Part shown: one piece after another, positions 5,501 to 57,203 of the stretch
How the letters are laid out: the number at the start of each line of letters is the position of its first letter
How positions within the stretch are numbered: the first letter of the stretch is position 1
Assembly (NCBI GenBank): GCA_963843585.1
Contig: CAWJLJ010000003.1
Span: forward strand, 107,075 to 171,074
Length of the DNA stretch: 64,000 nt
Source: an uncultured Acidobacteriota bacterium
GTDB taxonomy: Bacteria > Actinomycetota > Acidimicrobiia > Spongiisociales > ZC4RG35
Direction: 5' to 3'
Notes under the pieces: generated by a model
Databases searched by the model: none
What the model saw: the letters and a program-made list of their open reading frames with translations, nothing else
Told to the model about the DNA's origin: nothing
Program-made: the position numbers and the translations under genes

Positions 5501-7141
5501 TTGAGCACTCCACGCCAGGACCTGGGCGAGGCCTTGTGGCGACTGTCCGACCTGGTGCGGGCGGACGAGCGGAGACGGTCGTTCCGCGCCAAGGCCTACC
5601 GCAGGGCGGTGTGGTCCTTGGATGATCTGGCGCCCGATCTGTCCGACCCATCGGAGAGGGCACTGTCTATCCCCGGAATCGGGACAGGTGTGTTGCGGCT
5701 CATCGAGGAGTTCCGGGAAAATGGGACACTCGAGCTCCTCGAACGGCTCGAGCAGCTCTACCCCGCCGAGTCGGCCAGGATCAGACGTCTGCCCCGAATG
5801 ACGCCGGCAATCCTGCGCGCTCTCAAGGGCGAGCTCGGGATCGACACTACCGCCGATCTGATCGCAGCCATCGAGGCGGGAGGCGTCGAGGCCCTGAGGG
5901 GCGTCGGTCCTGCTACCGCAGAGCGATGGGCGGCGACGCTCCAACTGGCGCCCTCGACGGCGTCGATCCCGTCATTTCAGGCCTATGTGCTGGCGGACGC
6001 CCTCGGCAAGCATCTGATCCGTCATCTCGGTGGGACCGTCCATGCGGCCGGAGCCGTTCGGCGTGGAGAGGAGTGGGTAGAGACCGTCGATCTCGTCTCC
6101 GGGATCGACGACGTCGGCGCCGGGCGCGAATTCCTCGAAGGCACCGCGGTTGCCCGGTTTGTCGGTGATGGGCCTTCAGGGGAGATCGTGCTCCAGACCT
6201 ACGAAGACGTGGAGGCCAGCGTTCACCTGGTCCCGCCCTCCCACCTGGGACGGCGATTGCTCGAGGTGACAGGACCCGATCGGCATGCCCGCCCGCTTCT
6301 GGCAGACATCGACGCGGACGGGCTCTCCGAATCCGAGATCTACGAGCGGAATGGTCGCCTGTGGGTCCCGCCGCCGGCCCGAGCCCTCGATCCTGAGATT
6401 GCGGAGAGCGTCATACGGAACGGCCAGATCAAAGGCGACCTCCATCTGCACACCGACCTCTCCCCCGACGGGCGAATGAGCCTCTTCGAGATCGCGGCTG
6501 AGGCGACGGATCGCGAGTACGAGTACATCCTGATCACCGACCACACGACTGGCCTGCGGTTCGGAGGGCTCGACAGCGCCGGCCTGGACCGTCAGCGTGT
6601 GATGATCGAGGAGGCCAGAGCAGGATTCCCCGACCTGCTCGTGCTCCAAGGAGCAGAGTTGAACATCGATCGGGACGGCAGCCTCGACATCGACGACGAA
6701 GCACTGAGCCGGCTCGACTTCGCCGTTGCGGGTGTGCATTCGCATTTCGACCTCGATCGATTCGAGCAGACGGCCCGGGTGTTGAAGGCCCTCAGCCACC
6801 CCGTGGTCCGGGTCCTGGCCCATCCCACCGGCCGTCGGATCGGCAACCGACCTGCCATCGACCTCGACATCGACGCCGTTGTCGCCGCAGCCATCGAGAA
6901 CCACGTGGCCCTGGAAGTCAACGGACATCGGGATCGTCTCGACCTCTCCGCCGAGTACGCCGCGCTCGCCGTTGCCGCAGGAGCGGTCCTGGCAGCCAAC
7001 TCAGACTCGCATCGGATCGGCGAGATGGGCAACGTCGCAAACTCGGTGGCAACCATGCAGCGCGCCGGCATCGCCCCCTCGTCGGTGGTGAACACGATGT
7101 CCGTCGAGGCTTTCCGGGAATGGGCCGGCGTTATCGGTTGA
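5501..7141 (+). CDS. DNA polymerase X family protein with C-terminal PHP domain
   Basis: Intact 546-aa ORF with a TTG start. It has helix-hairpin-helix regions (SIPGIGTGV, LRGVGPATAE), a GAVRRGEE nucleotidyltransferase-like motif, and a PHP domain (GDLHLHTDLSPDG, ILITDHT, GVHSHF). Confidence 0.85.
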   Translation: MSTPRQDLGEALWRLSDLVRADERRRSFRAKAYRRAVWSLDDLAPDLSDPSERALSIPGIGTGVLRLIEEFRENGTLELLERLEQLYPAESARIRRLPRMTPAILRALKGELGIDTTADLIAAIEAGGVEALRGVGPATAERWAATLQLAPSTASIPSFQAYVLADALGKHLIRHLGGTVHAAGAVRRGEEWVETVDLVSGIDDVGAGREFLEGTAVARFVGDGPSGEIVLQTYEDVEASVHLVPPSHLGRRLLEVTGPDRHARPLLADIDADGLSESEIYERNGRLWVPPPARALDPEIAESVIRNGQIKGDLHLHTDLSPDGRMSLFEIAAEATDREYEYILITDHTTGLRFGGLDSAGLDRQRVMIEEARAGFPDLLVLQGAELNIDRDGSLDIDDEALSRLDFAVAGVHSHFDLDRFEQTARVLKALSHPVVRVLAHPTGRRIGNRPAIDLDIDAVVAAAIENHVALEVNGHRDRLDLSAEYAALAVAAGAVLAANSDSHRIGEMGNVANSVATMQRAGIAPSSVVNTMSVEAFREWAGVIG

Positions 7142-36682: not shown

Positions 36683-37820
36683 GTGGCTCTCCTGTTCTTC
36701 GTCAACGGGGTGGTCGTCGGAAGCTGGCTTCCCCGCCTTCCCGAGTTGAGGGACCGTCTCGGGATCGACCTGAGCACCCTCGGCCTCACTCTGGCCCTCG
36801 GCGGACTTGGGTCGCTGATCGGCTCATCTCTGAGCGGTCTCGTCGTGGGACGCTTCGGTGCTCGCCGGACGGCCGTGATTGCCGGGGCCGCGGTCTATGT
36901 CGTTCTCCCCCTCATTGCTGTCGCCCCCGTGGCCCTGGTGCTCGCGCTGGTTCTTGCGATCATCGGCTTCATCGACGCCCAAGCCGACGTCGGGATGAAC
37001 GCCGTCGGGGTCCGGGTCGAGGAGGCCGTGGGCCGGTCGGTGATGACGAGGCTGCATGGCTTGTGGAGCTTGGGCACACTGCTCGGCTCGGGCTTCAGCG
37101 CGCTGGCCGTCCTGGTGGGGATCGAATTGGGAATCCAACTTCTGATCGTCTCGGTGATCGGTCTGGTTACCGCCCTGTATGCCGCACGCCTGATCCCGGA
37201 AACCGCTCCCCGTCGTCGCGAGGGAGAGCGGTCCGGCCGTCTCGCCCTCGGACTGATGCTGGCCGGCGGTTTTGCCGTGTTCATAGAAGGCGCGCCATTC
37301 GACTGGAGCGCCCTCTTTCTCGTCGACATCACCGGGACCGGAGAGGCCCTGGCGGGGACGGGTGTCATCGTCTTCACCGGGGGGATGCTGATCGGTCGCC
37401 TCGCCGGCGATCACGTGGTCGATCGATTCGGGGCGATTCCGACCCTGTACGCCGGCATCGTCGTCTCGGTGGTCGCTTGCTTGTTTGTGGTCGGGCTCCA
37501 GACAGTGGTGACGTCGTTGATCGGCTTCGCCGTCTGGGGACTGGGCATCTCGGTCGCATCTGCCGGTGCTGTACAAGCTGGCCGGATCACATCGCTCCTT
37601 TGGAGAAGGGTCGGGTCTGGCCGCTCTCACCGTCGGCACCCGTCTCGGGTTCATGGTCGCCCCAGCGCTGATCGGCGTCGCCGCCACCGCTTGGTCCCTG
37701 CCGGTCGCATTGGGCGTGATCGTCACGCTCGCTGCGGTCGCCACGCTTCTCGCTGTCCGACTCACCATCGGCCGGCCCATCCCGGTGGGGGATTCCCTTC
37801 CCGGGGATGCGGTCTCATAA
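36683..37820 (+). CDS. MFS transporter, 1 frameshift
   Basis: Eleven to twelve hydrophobic helices. The last two are in ORF 37566..37820 (LYKLAGSHRSFGEGSGLAALTVGTRLGFMVAPALIG). The break is near 37560. Confidence 0.75.
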
Positions 37821-37848
37821 TGTGTGCTCAACCGATCCGGGAAATGGC

Positions 37849-39174
37849 GTGAACAAGCAGGCCGAATATGTCATGCGCACCGTCGAGGAGCGTGGGATCA
37901 GATTCATCAGGCTCTGGTTCACCGACGTCCAAGGCTTCCTCAAGTCGGTATCGATCAGCCCGGCCGAGCTCGAGGTTGCGTTCGAGGAGGGAATGACCTT
38001 CGACGGATCGGCCATCGACGGGTACGCCCGTATCCAGGAAGCCGACATGCTGGCCCGACCCGACCCGTCGACCTTTGGGGTGCTCCCCTGGCGCACCGAA
38101 CAGCAGGTGGCTCGGATGTTCTGTGACATCGCCACACCCGATGGCGAGCCTTTCTCGGGCGACCCCCGGATCGTCCTCAAGCGGAACCTGGGCCGCGCCT
38201 CGGAGATGGGATACAACTTCTACGCCGCGCCGGAGCTCGAGTTCTTCTACTTCAGGGACTCCGGGCCCGAGCCCGAGGTGCTCGACCACGGGGGCTATTT
38301 CGACATGACTCCGCTCGACGTCGCCCAGGACTACCGGAGAGACACGATCAACGCGCTGGAGCAGATGGGCATCCCGATCGAGCATTCCCATCACGAGGTA
38401 GCGCCCAGCCAGCACGAGATCATCGCCCGCTACACCGATGCGCTGACGATGGCCGACACCATCATGACCTCACGCCTGACGGTCAAGGAAGTGGCCCTGA
38501 AGCATGGGATCTACGCCACGTTCATGCCGAAGCCGCTCGAGGAACACGACGGCTCGGGCATGCACCTGCATCTGTCTCTCTTCGAGGATGATGTCAACGC
38601 GTTCCACGAGCCGGGGACCCCGGGCGGCCTGTCCAAGATCGGCCAAGCGTTCATCTCCGGCATCCTCCGCCATGCCGCAGAGATGACCGCGATCACGAAC
38701 CAATGGGTCAATTCCTACAAACGGCTGGTCGACGGCTTCGACGCACCCATCTACATCTCCTGGGCCCGCAACAACCAATCGGCTCTGGTGAGGGTTCCGA
38801 CGGTGAAGAAGGGCAAGCCATCGAGTGTCCGCGTGGAGTATCGGGCCGCCGACGCCGCCTGCAACCCCTACCTGACACTTTCGGTGATCCTCGCGGCAGG
38901 GTTGGCAGGCATCAAGGAGGGATACGAGCTGCCACCCGAGATCTCGGCCAACATCCATCTCATGACGCCGGCCGAACGCGCCGCCGCCGGGGCGAAGCGC
39001 CTCCCCGAGACTTTGTCCGAGGCGCTCGACCTCATGGAGGGGTCCGAGCTGATCGCAGAGGCCCTCGGGGAGCATGTCTTCGACTGGTTCCTCCGCAACA
39101 AGCGCAAGGAGTGGGACCGCTATCAGCACCACGTCTCGCGCTTCGAGCTAGAGAGCTATCTGCCGGTCCTGTGA
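37849..39174 (+). CDS. glnA: type I glutamine synthetase (GlnA2-like)
   Basis: Intact from GTG 37849. Motifs IRFIRLWFTDVQGFLKSV, EVAPSQHEI, NSYKRLV and SALVRVP. Confidence 0.9.
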   Translation: MNKQAEYVMRTVEERGIRFIRLWFTDVQGFLKSVSISPAELEVAFEEGMTFDGSAIDGYARIQEADMLARPDPSTFGVLPWRTEQQVARMFCDIATPDGEPFSGDPRIVLKRNLGRASEMGYNFYAAPELEFFYFRDSGPEPEVLDHGGYFDMTPLDVAQDYRRDTINALEQMGIPIEHSHHEVAPSQHEIIARYTDALTMADTIMTSRLTVKEVALKHGIYATFMPKPLEEHDGSGMHLHLSLFEDDVNAFHEPGTPGGLSKIGQAFISGILRHAAEMTAITNQWVNSYKRLVDGFDAPIYISWARNNQSALVRVPTVKKGKPSSVRVEYRAADAACNPYLTLSVILAAGLAGIKEGYELPPEISANIHLMTPAERAAAGAKRLPETLSEALDLMEGSELIAEALGEHVFDWFLRNKRKEWDRYQHHVSRFELESYLPVL

Positions 39175-39184
39175 ATCCCGCCCT

Positions 39185-39820
39185 GTGAACGTCGCCATCC
39201 ACCCTCCCGACTGCTCGGAGAGCATCCTCGACGGGTTGCTCCTGGCCGGGGCGACCCATGTCGCGGCCCCCGAGCTGGTGCCCGAGGAACGTGTGATCAA
39301 CGACGCCGACATCCTCTTGGTCGAGCTCGGCGACCAGCCGATCCGGCGTCTGCGAGAGGTGACCCGGATCGTGGAGGAGATCGGACTGCCCGTCATACTC
39401 GCCATCTCCCTCGACCAACTCGCTCTCGTCGATTCCACGAGCGGCATCTCCGACTTCATCACGGCCCCGGTCGACCCGCTCGAGCTCAGGCTGCGCGTCC
39501 AGCGGCTGAACAAGGAAGAGCAGACTGACGATCTGGTGGTGTTCAAGGACCTCGAGTTGAACACCCTCAATTACCAGGCCACGCTGGCCTCCAAGCCGAT
39601 CGACCTCACCTTCATGGAGTACGAACTGCTTCGATTCCTGGTCGCGAATCCGATCCGTGTCTGGTCCCGGGAACAGCTTCTCTCCAAGGTCTGGGGTTAC
39701 GACTACTACGGCGGCGCACGCACCGTCGATGTCCATATCCGTCGCCTCCGCTCCAAGCTCGGCGAGGAGCGCGCCTCCTGGATCACGACCGTCCGCTCCG
39801 TGGGGTACCGCTTCGGGTAG
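39185..39820 (+). CDS. atypical OmpR-family orphan response regulator, GlnR-like
   Basis: The winged-helix C-terminus is canonical (LTFMEYELLRFLVANP, WGYDYYGGARTVDVHIRRLRSKLG, VRSVGYRF). The receiver lacks the N-terminal acidic pair and the conserved Lys (DFITAPV), and has Glu at the phospho-acceptor position (ILLVELG). It lies directly downstream of glnA. Confidence 0.7.
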   Translation: MNVAIHPPDCSESILDGLLLAGATHVAAPELVPEERVINDADILLVELGDQPIRRLREVTRIVEEIGLPVILAISLDQLALVDSTSGISDFITAPVDPLELRLRVQRLNKEEQTDDLVVFKDLELNTLNYQATLASKPIDLTFMEYELLRFLVANPIRVWSREQLLSKVWGYDYYGGARTVDVHIRRLRSKLGEERASWITTVRSVGYRFG

Positions 39821-39832
39821 TTCGGGTGTAAC

Positions 39833-39886
39833 GGCGAACCTGAGGTTCTGCGACCCGGATACGGGCCGAATCGTCTCAGGTTCGCC
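39833..39886 (+). repeat. 54-nt structured quasi-palindromic intergenic element, copy A
   Basis: GGCGAACCTGAGGTTCTGCGACCCGGATACGGGCCGAATCGTCTCAGGTTCGCC. The outer stem is a 12-bp perfect pairing (GGCGAACCTGAG/CTCAGGTTCGCC). The inner hairpin is CCCG-GATA-CGGG. It contains the palindrome GAACCTGAGGTTC. Confidence 0.8.
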
Positions 39887-39917
39887 CCAACCAGCACCGA
39901 CCGACCACAATTGACCG

Positions 39918-41069
39918 ATGGGTTTCCGGACCAAGCAGGTACACGCCGGGGTGACGCCCGACCCGACCACCGGGGCGATCCTCACCCCCATCCACCAGTC
40001 GACGACCTTCGTCCAGGACTCGGTAGATGAGTACATGGGCAAGGGGTACTCCTACAGCAGGGGCGGGAACCCGACGGTGCGCGCCCTCGAGGAGAAGCTG
40101 ACCGCCCTGGAGGAAGGTCATGACACCACGGCCTATGCCTCCGGGATGGCGGCCACCGTCGCCGTCTTCCTCGGCCTCCTGCGGGCGGGGGACCACGTGA
40201 TCATTGCCGACGTCGTGTACGGGGGCACCTATCGATTCGCCGATCAGTTCCTCACCAAGTTCGGAGTCGACGTCACCTTCGCCGACGCCTCGGATGCAGA
40301 CAGAGTTGAAGCGGTGATGCGGCCCGAAACACGCATCGTCTTCACCGAGAGCCCGGCCAATCCGACGCTAAAGGTGACCGATCTGGCGGCCATCTCGGAG
40401 ATCACCCGATCGGCCGGCGCGCTTCATGTCACCGACAACACGTTCCTCACCCCCTACTTCCAGAAGCCGTTCCACCTCGGCGCCAACATCGTCATTCACT
40501 CGACGACCAAGTTCCTCGATGGTCACAACGCGACGCTCGGCGGGGCGGTGGTCGTCGACGACGAGGAGCTCCAGGAGAAGATCTCCTTCGCCCGCATCTC
40601 CGCCGGGCTGGTGATGTCGCCGATGGTGGCCTGGCTCACCTTGCAGGGAGTCAAGACATTGAGCGAGCGCATGGACCGGCAGTCGGCAAATGCCCTGACC
40701 ATCGCCGAGTGGCTTCGGGATCACCCCAAGGTCGACTACGTCAATTACCCGGGGCTGACGTCCCATCCGCAGTACGAGCTCTCGTCGCGTCAGGCCAGCG
40801 GGTTCGGCGCCCTGGTGTGCTTCGAGGTGCACGGCGGTGCGGAGACAGGCAAGAAGCTGATGGACGCGGTCGAGCTGTGGAGTCTCGCCGAGAATCTGGG
40901 TGCGGTGGAATCGCTGATCACCCACCCGGTCACGATGACCCACGCCGCGGTGCCGGCTGAGGAGAGGGTGGCCGCGGGCATCACCGACGGGCTGGTCCGG
41001 CTCTCGGTCGGGCTGGAAGACGTCGAGGACTTGATCGCGGACCTCGAATCCGCCCTCGATCGGGTCTAG
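39918..41069 (+). CDS. Cys/Met-metabolism PLP-dependent enzyme (cystathionine gamma-synthase/lyase family)
   Basis: Intact 383 aa. Motifs YSRGGNPT, ESPANPTL and HSTTKFLDGH (PLP lysine), with a C-terminal LVRLSVGLEDVEDLIADL. Confidence 0.9.
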   Translation: MGFRTKQVHAGVTPDPTTGAILTPIHQSTTFVQDSVDEYMGKGYSYSRGGNPTVRALEEKLTALEEGHDTTAYASGMAATVAVFLGLLRAGDHVIIADVVYGGTYRFADQFLTKFGVDVTFADASDADRVEAVMRPETRIVFTESPANPTLKVTDLAAISEITRSAGALHVTDNTFLTPYFQKPFHLGANIVIHSTTKFLDGHNATLGGAVVVDDEELQEKISFARISAGLVMSPMVAWLTLQGVKTLSERMDRQSANALTIAEWLRDHPKVDYVNYPGLTSHPQYELSSRQASGFGALVCFEVHGGAETGKKLMDAVELWSLAENLGAVESLITHPVTMTHAAVPAEERVAAGITDGLVRLSVGLEDVEDLIADLESALDRV

Positions 41070-43970: not shown

Positions 43971-44081
43971 TGCTTTTAACTCTGGTCCTGAACCTGGTGG
44001 CCTGTGTCGTCCATATTAACCGCCTCCGGCCCCTGGACCATTCCCCCTATATCGGTAGTGGAAATTACCATTGGGAGTGCA

Positions 44082-49667: not shown

Positions 49668-49721
49668 GGCGAACCTCAGGTTCTCCGGCCCACATACGGG
49701 CCAATCGCCTCAGGTAGCCGC
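49668..49721 (+). repeat. 54-nt structured intergenic element, copy B
   Basis: GGCGAACCTCAGGTTCTCCGGCCCACATACGGGCCAATCGCCTCAGGTAGCCGC. By hand alignment it is roughly 80% identical to copy A, with one 1-nt indel. The inner hairpin GGCCC-ACATAC-GGGCC is preserved. Confidence 0.75.
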
Positions 49722-49737: not shown

Positions 49738-49792
49738 GACGAACCTGAGGCGGTTGGTTTCATATCCGGGTCGTGGAACCTGAGGTTCGCAG
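49738..49792 (-). repeat. 54-nt structured intergenic element, copy C (inverted orientation)
   Basis: The reverse complement is CTGCGAACCTCAGGTTCCACGACCCGGATATGAAACCAACCGCCTCAGGTTCGTC. It matches copy A at about 41 of 54 positions by hand alignment. Confidence 0.7.
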
Positions 49793-49818
49793 TAGGACGG
49801 ACCTGGCAGACTTGCCCG

Positions 49819-51162
49819 GTGGCTTCCAGCGACAATCCGTATCGGGGGCTCCCGCCGGTCGACCAGGTGGTCGACGGGCTAGGCGAGACCGCTCTCCCCA
49901 GACTGCTCATCGTCGATTGCGCCCGATCGGCGCTCGACCTCGCCCGCGCCGAGATCGCCAGTGGCGGTGAGCCCGACGTGAGCCGCATCGCCGCCGACCT
50001 GGCGGCCGGGCTGCGGCGGTCGGCAAGCCACAAGGTGATCAACGCCACCGGAGTGCTCCTGCACACCAATCTCGGTCGAGCCCCTCTCTCGCCTGGAGCC
50101 GCCGAGTCCGCGCTGAAGGCAGCCGTCTCCTACACCAATCTCGAGCTCGATCTCGACGACGGAGAACGCGGAGGTCGCGGGGGGTACCTACGTGCTCTCC
50201 TGCAGACACTCACCGGTGCCGAAGACGGTCTCGTCGTCAACAACAACGCGGCGGCGGTGCTGCTCGCCCTGGCCGCCACCGCCTCGGGGCGGGCCGTCCC
50301 GGTGGCCAGAGGGGAGCTCATCGAAATCGGCGGATCGTTCCGGCTCCCATTGGTGATGGAAGCGGGCGGCGCACGACTCGTCGAGGTCGGGACCACCAAT
50401 CGAACCCGGATTGGCGACTACGCCACCGCTCTCCAGATCCACGACTGCGGAGCGGTCTTGAAGGTGCATCCCTCCAACTTCCGGGTCGATGGATTCGTCG
50501 CTGATGTGCCTGTTCGAGATCTGGCCGAGCTCGCTCACGACCAAGACGTCCCGCTGATCCACGATCTCGGGTCTGGCTTGCTCGACAGCGACACTCCGTG
50601 GCTCGGCACCAAGCCCCCCTGGTTGTCCGGAGAGCCGGGGGCCCGCCAGTCGATCGAGGCGGGAGCCGACCTGGTCACCTTCAGCGGCGACAAGCTGGTC
50701 GGCGGGCCACAGGCGGGCATCATCGTCGGCTCCGCCGAGGCGGTTGACCAGCTCCGGCGCAATCCGCTCGCCCGGGCCTTGAGGATCGACGCCATGACCG
50801 ATGCCGCCCTGGCCGTGACGCTCGAGGCCTACGCCAACGGCGAGGCCAATCGGATCCCGATATGGCAGATGGCGACGCTGAGTGAGTCGGACCTCGCGGC
50901 CAGAGTGGACGCTCTTGCCGCCCGGGTTGGAGGAGTGGCCCGGCCCGGAGAATCCGTCGTTGGGGCGGGCAGCCTCCCCGGAGTGGGCATTCCGACACCA
51001 CAGATCGTCCTGAAGGATGAGGACCATCTCCATGGCCGTCTTCTCGGGGCCAACCACCCGGTCCTGACCCGGAGGATGGAAAAGGACCTGATCCTCGACC
51101 TCCGAGCAGTGGCCGAGGAAGACGACGATGTGATCGCGGACATGGTGGCCGGTTGCCGCTGA
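49819..51162 (+). CDS. selA: L-seryl-tRNA(Sec) selenium transferase
   Basis: Intact from GTG 49819. Motifs [25 protein letters not shown] and [17 protein letters not shown] (PLP lysine). Confidence 0.9.
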
Positions 51163-52908
51163 TCGGGACCGCGGGCCATGTCGACCACGGCAAGTCGACC
51201 CTGGTCGAGGCGCTCACCGGACGTGACCCCGACCGCTGGGCCGAAGAGAAGGAACGCGGGCTGACCATCGATCTCGGGTTCGCCTGGACCACACTCGGAT
51301 CCGCGGGCGAGGTCTCGTTCGTCGACGTGCCCGGGCACGAGCGGTTCCTGAAGAACATGCTCGCCGGGATCGAGGCCATCGACGTCGCATTGTTCGTCGT
51401 GGCCGCCGACGAGGGCTGGATGCCGCAGTCCGAAGAGCATCTGGCCGTGCTCGACCTCCTTGGGCATCGCTTCGGGCGTCATCGCCCTGACCAAGATCGA
51501 CGCCGTCGACCCGGCGGTCGCCGCAGAAGTCGAGATCGAGATCGCGCAGGAACTGGTCGGCACCACGCTGGAAACGGCACCGATCATCCCGGTATCGGCC
51601 AGGACAGGTGAGGGTATGGATCGGCTGCGGGAGGAACTCGCGGCGCGAGTGGCCGATATTCAGCATGGTGGTGACCGGCCGCGGCTGTGGGTCGACCGGG
51701 CCTTCTCGGTTCGAGGCGCGGGCACGGTGGTGACGGGGACTTTGACCGAAGGCCCGCTGAAGGTCGGGGACCATCTCGAGTTGCTGCCGGGCGGCAAACG
51801 GGGCCGGATTCGCGGCATGCAGAGCCATGAGAGTGAGATCGAGACGGCCGAACCGGGGCGACGGCTCGCCTTGAACCTGACAGGAATAGATCGCGAGGAA
51901 GCCTCTCGTGGAACGATGCTGGGCCTGCCCGGTCAGTGGGAGCCGTCGGCTCGATTCACCGCATTGCTGACAGCAGCCCGATACATCGATGCTCTCTCCA
52001 CCCGAGGAGCTTTCCACATCCATCTGGGCAGCGGTGCCCACTCCGCAACGATCAAACGGCTGGAGGACGGGTATGCCTTGATCGAGGTCCCCGTGGCCCT
52101 GCCGATGAGAACCGGCGATCGCTTCATCCTGAGGGAAGCCGGACGTCGTCAAGTGGTCGCCGGCGGCACGGTGATCGATCCGGCACCCGGGTCACCTTCC
52201 CGGGCGATGGCGACGGCACGGCTCATCGACCCATTGGCCGGGAGGGATGATGTCGCGACGGCGCTCCTGGGGGTGCGCGGAATGGACGACGTCGAGCGTC
52301 TTGCCGCGCACAGTGGTGGAGGGCACCCGCAGGGATCGGTCCTGGTCGGCGACACTGCTCTGACCCACGAACGCTTCGATGAGCTCCGGTCTCGGGCGGA
52401 AGCGATCGTCACCGAGCATCACGAGCAGCATCCGCTCCGGCCAGGAATTCCGTTGGCGACACTCTCGGCAACTCTCGGCACGTCGCCCGAGTTGGCTGAG
52501 CTCCTCGTCGAGAGGAGCGATCAGATCGTTCGCAGTGGCCCTGACGTCTCGACCCGACAGCATCGTTCGAGCTTGGACCCGGATTCACAACTCAGGTGGG
52601 AGAAAGCTCGAGCCAGGTTGAGCGAGAGCTTGGCGGTGCCTGACGCCGACGCACTCGGTCTGGGCGACGAGCTGATCCATTTGTTGATCAGGGAGGCCAG
52701 GCTGGTCCGTGTCTCCGACACCCTCGTCTATCTGCCCGAGCAGATCGAAGAGATCAAGCGAATGCTGGGTGAGATGACAGAGCCATTCACCGTGGCCCGT
52801 TTCCGCGACCACACCGGGCTGTCACGGAAGTACGTGGTGCCCATCCTCGAGTGGGCGGATAGAGAAGGGCTCACCATCCGGCGGGGCGATGTGCGCCACC
52901 TTCGGTGA
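51153..52908 (+). CDS. selB: selenocysteine-specific translation elongation factor SelB, 1 frameshift
   Basis: The TTG start overlaps the selA end. It reads [20 protein letters not shown] and DVPGHERF, then shifts near 51462 (extra G in a G run) to ORF 51460..52908. The C-terminal winged-helix region contains [27 protein letters not shown]. Confidence 0.85.
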
Positions 52909-57123: not shown

Positions 57124-57203
57124 GGTTCGACTCTGCACACCGCCACCAAGCATCGCGGGCTAATCACCCCGATGCACCGTCGTGGGGCTGCGAACCTGAG
57201 AGC

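Follow-up and report, generated by a model that had tools for sequence, protein, structure and literature searches.

The closest described systems are the REP, REPIN, and BIME sequences of proteobacteria, which are associated with RAYT. These are short extragenic palindromes, often lying just past stop codons and in either orientation. They form head-to-head doublets that fold as one long hairpin, as well as clusters and tandem arrays, and they are restricted to particular lineages and conserved at orthologous sites. Classical REPs are marked at one of their ends by a conserved tetranucleotide, GTAG (or CGTC), and the survey of these elements does not mention Actinobacteria, the phylum of our host (Actinomycetota) being outside those surveyed (PMC3733652). 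A full-text search of the literature for REPIN together with RAYT in Actinobacteria returned no paper. The Correia elements (CREE) of Neisseria and similar MITE-like sequences have inverted-repeat ends, are intergenic, are polymorphic for presence or absence between relatives, and possibly affect the transcripts of their neighbors. Intrinsic terminators and the stabilizing hairpins of 3′-UTRs place a stable GC-rich hairpin directly downstream of an operon.

The element analyzed here, copy A, lies between a glnR-like gene and a gene for a PLP enzyme in the window, i.e., the whole stretch of 64,000 nucleotides under analysis. A preliminary description took it for a structured RNA or hairpin-forming DNA, possibly a terminator or a leader with two alternative structures as in riboswitches, and raised a sulfur/selenium regulon as speculation. 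Copy A probably belongs to a family of palindromic repeats that are scattered between the genes of uncultured soil Acidimicrobiia and restricted to this lineage, similar to REP/REPIN or BIME, and is not a riboswitch or a part of a sulfur/selenium regulon. It is best described as a REP-like repeat of a familiar kind, and we found no description of this particular family.

Copy A (39833–39886, forward strand) spans 54 nt and forms a nested palindrome, the outer stem of which pairs perfectly over 12 bp. It is the longest inverted repeat detected in the window. Its full order is GGCGAACCTGAG GTTCTGCGA CCCG GATA CGGG CCGAATCGT CTCAGGTTCGCC, where GGCGAACCTGAG (39833–39844) is the exact reverse complement of CTCAGGTTCGCC (39875–39886). 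The inner hairpin CCCG-GATA-CGGG (39854–39865), with a 4-bp stem and a GATA loop, is part of a variable core hairpin, CGACCCG-GATA-CGGGCCG (39851–39868). The 5′ side holds box 1, GCGAACCTGAGGTTC (39834–39848), which consists of the 13-bp palindrome GAACC-TGA-GGTTC plus GC, and the 3′ arm is half of box 2. The element is found by inverted-repeat search, by folding, and by a covariance model (R1, see following; 73.2 bits). As RNA it folds with −33.5 kcal/mol (z = −4.9, none of 200 shuffles being as good) and as DNA with −18.6 kcal/mol (z = −4.6). The 12-mer of the arm, allowing at most one mismatch, occurs seven times in the window for 0.7 expected, a number reached in none of 100 shuffles. Upstream are genes identified by Pfam as glutamine synthetase (glnA, 37807–39174) and a GlnR-like regulator of the OmpR family (39185–39820, forward strand), whose stop codon (39818–39820) is 12 nt from the element. 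Downstream, after 31 nt, starts the gene of a PLP enzyme of Cys/Met metabolism (39918–41069, forward strand; Pfam Cys_Met_Meta_PP, E = 1.5e-145). The stem, the nested tetraloop hairpin, and the distance to the PLP gene are thus as first described. The same description proposed two mutually exclusive folds. The 5′ arm can indeed fold on itself (GAACC-TGA-GGTTC), but with just −5.4 kcal/mol against −33.5 for the full hairpin.

The covariance model finds two other full copies in the window, B (49668–49721, forward strand, 51.5 bits) and C (49738–49792, reverse strand, 64.5 bits), which are the left and right halves of a head-to-head doublet. The inner hairpin of copy B is GGCCC-ACATAC-GGGCC, as reported initially, and the core of copy C self-pairs poorly. 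Together, B and C fold into one long hairpin of −81 kcal/mol (z = −9.7). They had been regarded as flanking selA; in fact the doublet occupies the gap between a NUDIX gene and selA, so that both copies are upstream of the latter. Two other candidate copies (57189–57203 and 43988–44036) were dropped, as the covariance model does not match them at E up to 1. The selA gene has a −10-like hexamer, CAGACT (49807–49812), followed by 6 nt and a GTG start at 49819; this hexamer and the lack of a visible Shine-Dalgarno sequence suggest that selA is probably a leaderless gene with its own promoter. The start of the longest selA open reading frame (49606) is placed too far upstream. In the same region, selB (51153–52908) is split into two overlapping open reading frames (51153–51611 and 51460–52908), which suggests a frameshift or an assembly error.

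The family was delimited by scanning one genome per prokaryotic species (185,579 species genomes) for the pattern GCGAACCTSAGGTTC-N18-36-CTSAGGT. This yielded 41 loci, for about five expected by chance. Around 36 were judged real, all in Acidimicrobiia-type metagenome-assembled genomes (MAGs), and four look like chance matches (a Streptomyces, an alphaproteobacterium of 33% GC, Mariniblastus, and locus L039). Model R1, built from an alignment of 33 copies, identifies 50 units, which are distributed over 35 sites of the window and the family loci. Merging of orthologous sites leaves about 22 distinct genomic ones. Copy number looks modest, with at most five strict-pattern matches per representative genome. 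The pattern has no match among the viral contigs of IMG/VR. Rfam has no family for the element: at gathering thresholds for the whole window, and at E up to 10 for 39700–40000, the only matches are a tRNA and a chance hit to a pestivirus family.

The repeat unit starts with a perfect 13-bp palindrome, GAACCT-S-AGGTTC, usually preceded by GC, and ends with CTSAGGTTCG. In many copies there is a complete second box 34–36 bp after the first. Between the boxes lies a small hairpin core of varying sequence (GGCCCGG/CCGGGCC, GTTTCA/TGAAAC, GTAACGG/CCGTGAC, GTACCG/CGGTAC, and others). Six of the seven inner pairs of the core show compensatory changes across the 33 copies, with a covariation score of 0.176 against 0.094 in shuffles (none of 500 reaching 0.176) and much lower values in slid controls. 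The suggestion of a hairpin-forming element, whose inner stem is kept while its sequence changes, is thus supported. Some cores pair poorly (copy C, L024, L033). Pairing between the central S of box 1 and the corresponding base of the 3′ arm is seen in only 17 of 32 copies, for about 56% expected by chance from the base frequencies of the alignment. Because this is the chance level, each box acts as a palindrome of its own instead of serving as half of a long stem under selection. Units occur as singles or, at nine of the tabulated sites, as head-to-head (+−) doublets about 125 nt long.

At L007 (4083–4739), a variant of the repeat is found in tandem, with 18.8 near-identical units of 35 bp (CGGTGATCCTGAGGTTCAGGGCGTCATTCGTGGTG) in an array that closes with the perfect palindrome GGGCGTCATATATGACGCCC. 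The orthologous sites (L011:1660–1790, L017:5680–5800, and L027:7315–7370) have one or two units, which indicates a variable, VNTR-like unit number. L041:3669–3722 is a full unit upstream of a gene resembling aminotransferases of class V, identified by eye from its translation. Its relative L012 (reverse complement, ~6880–6930) has only a 23-nt box-like remnant, ACCGAACCTTAGAAAGTAGGTAC, resulting from decay of the copy or partial deletion. Given this remnant, L012 is not decisive as a clean empty site for comparison with L041.

All 35 sites are intergenic according to a rough gene caller based on GC3. Many units begin 3–12 nt past a stop codon. The genes on either side are convergent at four sites and divergent at others, which include divergent promoter regions. 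The orientation of the unit relative to the upstream gene is mixed. When the upstream gene is taken as reference, folding is no more stable for the sense than for the antisense sequence (+1.5 kcal/mol on average over 23 comparisons), so there is no sign of selection specific to an RNA strand. The flanking genes are functionally unrelated and include an EamA transporter, CvpA, a TrpB-like enzyme, a glycerophosphodiesterase, isocitrate lyase, PurE, an ArsR-type regulator, a zincin peptidase, and RNase J. The family thus spreads to, and persists in, intergenic DNA whatever the neighboring genes. In a relative of 68% GC (L021:579–633), two units lie 16 nt upstream of a Cys_Met_Meta_PP gene of the O-acetylhomoserine sulfhydrylase type (E = 2.7e-129). 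With one such gene among about 25 flanking genes examined, this is probably a coincidence. Across 34 loci, the only gene with a copy on either side is the aminotransferase-like one of L041, assigned by eye. Neither a transposase nor another partner enzyme was found in the window and the family loci. A low-sensitivity tblastn search for a DUF559 partner, with Escherichia coli YcjD against these 708 kb, gave a best E of 0.16 at a position that is not near any element.

The evolution of the element is most easily followed at the glnR/PLP site. Six relatives (L020, L022, L034, L042, L043, and L044) have it at exactly the same place. Among these and the window, the 4-fold degenerate sites of glnR and the PLP gene have diverged by 12%–46%. 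At the 26 positions of the boxes, the same seven genomes show zero or one difference, the sole difference being the free central base; box 1 of the window is identical in the six orthologous sites. For a pair at 0.43 divergence of 4-fold sites, the probability of no change at 26 neutral positions is ~5e-7 (0.57^26). The boxes are therefore held constant by selection or homogenization. The cores behave very differently: that of the window differs from the ones of relatives only 0.12–0.14 diverged at 9–10 of 26 nt, yet it matches, together with its 3′ flank CGGGCCGAATCGTCTCAGG, copies at other loci (e.g., L006). Because it has diverged from close relatives and resembles copies elsewhere, the core at this site has been replaced, an event that would most simply reflect gene conversion between copies. 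The selA site and the site shared by L024 and L031 show the same contrast, with constant boxes, swapped cores, and the gain or loss of a whole unit. Cores are thus exchanged between copies, and units come and go. Alignments of sites with one and two units show no clear direct duplication of the target site, the boxes themselves being inverted repeats.

The upstream regions of 80 orthologs of the PLP gene taken from metagenomes place these events in a wider context. The glnR–PLP gene pair is retained down to ~58% identity of GlnR, but the element is present only in the closest relatives (PLP identity of at least 94%) and in one genome at 84% (L055, as a doublet). Most orthologous upstream regions lack it. 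Relatives at 77%–90% PLP identity keep the two genes without any hairpin or with a hairpin of another family. For example, in L054 a −10 hexamer lies 8 nt after the glnR stop with no hairpin, and L076 is likewise devoid of one. Hence, the element is dispensable for both neighboring genes. Other lineages of Acidimicrobiia have, at the same spot, palindromes of another dispersed family (GCGTGTGCA-variable core-TGCACACGC), found in L060, L061, L065 (1372, 2381, 2443), L067, L072 (107, 1113), and L095 (1440, 2438), and recurring at several sites within the contigs of L065, L072, and L095. The glnR/PLP gap thus tends to be occupied by palindromic repeats of whatever family is present in the lineage.

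In about 46 of 50 distinct sequences upstream of PLP orthologs there is a NANAAT hexamer (CACAAT, TACAAT, TAGAAT, or CAGAAT) at about −12 to −7 from the ATG, and the 6 nt in between show no evident Shine-Dalgarno sequence. In the window, the hexamer CACAAT (39906–39911, forward strand) is followed by TGACCG and the ATG at 39918. This geometry matches the actinobacterial −10 motif TANNNT, which is centered 7–12 bp upstream of transcription starts in genomes where many transcripts are leaderless and no −35 is conserved (PMC3898074). We therefore predict that the mRNA of the PLP gene is leaderless and uses its own promoter downstream of copy A. A strict scan for σ70 promoters and a scan for terminators with a T-run found nothing in either case (zero terminators). 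Because the predicted leaderless start lies 3′ of copy A, the element would not be a leader of the PLP gene. The preliminary description had named a stop of transcription at the hairpin under all conditions, together with a separate promoter after 39886, as evidence for a plain intrinsic terminator, and such a promoter is what the hexamer, judging from its conservation, points to. Transcript data come from soil and rhizosphere metatranscriptome contigs of relatives (90%–97% identity), which are fragmentary and carry no direction. At the end of glnR, the contig depth in X25, a poor measure, goes from 51.8 down to 0.7. A contig of 215 nt in X28 covers 39722–39931 and with it the element. Carry-over of DNA is possible. 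As one contig reads across the element, termination there, if any, would be incomplete.

These data bear on the functions that one could assign to copy A. It was initially proposed that the element could be either the terminator of glnA/glnR or the leader of the PLP gene. The second option fails on the predicted downstream start. The first would make copy A an intrinsic, factor-independent terminator of the glnA–glnR operon, selected at this locus for that task. This would fit a strong GC-rich hairpin (−33.5 kcal/mol) 12 nt past the stop, a downstream gene with its own predicted promoter, and, weakly given the measure, the drop of depth in X25. Yet there is no T-run, and for this reason copy A is not a canonical L-shaped terminator. 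The same box is found at about 22 unrelated sites, divergent promoter regions included, L054 and L076 have no hairpin there, and one RNA contig crosses the element. A plain terminator would hardly share its sequence with some 20 unrelated sites, and we regard this simple-terminator reading as very unlikely. Even less credit can be given to copy A as a riboswitch-like leader or operator for the Cys/Met PLP gene and selA within a sulfur/selenium regulon, a cis-regulatory RNA reading that is largely refuted. The possibility of two mutually exclusive folds and the copy 16 nt upstream of the sulfhydrylase-type gene of L021 speak for it. However, the alternative fold is far weaker, Rfam has no match, and copies follow stops, lie between convergent genes, and occur in either orientation. 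Moreover, the predicted leaderless start is downstream of the element, the neighbors elsewhere are diverse, and most orthologous PLP upstream regions, including ones of relatives with the glnR–PLP pair, lack the element. A transcription-factor operator would account for the palindrome but not for the many sites at 3′ ends of genes or between convergent genes. The Cheo box of LexA was rejected from sequence alone, since the box here is GAAC-N5-GTTC and not N4, and lies at gene ends. GlnR boxes have the consensus GTnAC-n6-GaAAC, which the GTAAC flank does not fit.

Boxes as strongly conserved as these could serve the host, for example, as a protein-binding site, instead of reflecting selfish spread. 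They might be bound throughout the genome by a dimeric protein specific to the clade, such as a nucleoid-associated factor or a nuclease or recombinase that has been domesticated. The repeat would then be kept for that host function, the core being secondary. A perfect 13-bp palindrome with a free central base suits a dimer, and the fixed spacing of ~35 bp, with the 35-bp period of the 18.8-unit variant array, the invariance of orthologous boxes despite up to 46% divergence at 4-fold sites, and the lack of strand bias all agree with such sites. On the other hand, no candidate protein was found (the YcjD search in the window and all loci giving no better than E = 0.16), and among 34 loci only the aminotransferase-like gene of L041 is bracketed by two copies. 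The compensatory changes in the core argue that formation of a single-strand hairpin matters, and the uniformity of the boxes could result from nothing more than gene conversion. We thus consider this explanation rather improbable. A related idea, also unlikely, is that the boxes are recognition sites of a clade-specific enzyme or DNA-binding protein that propagates the repeat and catalyzes the exchange of cores between copies. If true, this would be a REPIN-like system in Actinomycetota running on non-RAYT machinery, with box-guided "cassette swapping" as its signature.

The reading as a REP-like dispersed repeat accounts for the properties of copy A as follows. The unit has a small hairpin core between two 13-bp boxes spaced by about 35 bp and occurs as singles or head-to-head doublets. 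At this locus it would have been acquired between the glnR stop and a leaderless promoter that the PLP gene already possessed. Copy A, if it is transcribed, would be the 3′ hairpin of the glnA–glnR message and might act as a terminator or as a stabilizer of the 3′ end. Lying as close as 12 nt to the stop, it might perhaps also damp translation of glnR. An effect of this kind is reported from E. coli, where Liang, Rudd and Deutscher reportedly found in 2015 that a REP within ~15 nt of the stop codon lowers translation of the upstream gene.

Compared with REP/REPIN/BIME, the family shares the position, orientations, doublets, clusters and arrays, lineage restriction, and conservation at orthologous sites described at the outset, including repeated extragenic palindromes (the 50 units at 35 intergenic sites) and inverted doublets forming a long hairpin (the nine sites, among them B and C). 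It differs by the lack of an invariant GTAG/CGTC in the 33 copies, some of which carry CTAC or CGTC beside the core, and by the lack of a RAYT or other partner gene in the window and loci. Its unit is composite, two boxes plus an exchangeable core, and its copy number appears modest. With Correia and MITE-like elements it has in common the traits given above, but it is much shorter (54 nt versus about 100–150 nt), shows no clear target-site duplication, and has no known parental IS. It resembles terminators and 3′-UTR hairpins in its stability, GC richness, and position directly downstream of an operon, but it lacks a U-tract and has a sequence common to unrelated loci, promoter regions among them. 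Finally, its box (GAACCTSAGGTTC) differs from the one of the GAACCCNGGGTT-armed palindromic repeats of Acidimicrobiia.

For annotation, these results remove a false lead to a riboswitch or regulon, indicate that the PLP gene and selA are probably leaderless and transcribed from promoters of their own, and add documented REP-like repeats for Acidimicrobiia. The unusual traits of the family are boxes frozen at up to 46% synonymous divergence and hairpin cores swapped between close relatives, and the most interesting point is why the former stay frozen while the latter swap. If a partner protein exists, its discovery would extend the REPIN concept beyond the hosts of RAYT. A minor point concerns taxonomy. 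Loci from Microflora-Danica MAGs recorded as "uncultured Acidobacteriota" (L006, L010, L012, L022–L024, L028, L031–L034, L038, L040, and L041) are 82%–91% identical in nucleotides to the window in glnR, the PLP gene, and the selA region. Other close relatives are labeled Acidimicrobiia, and the phylum label Acidobacteriota of these records looks wrong.
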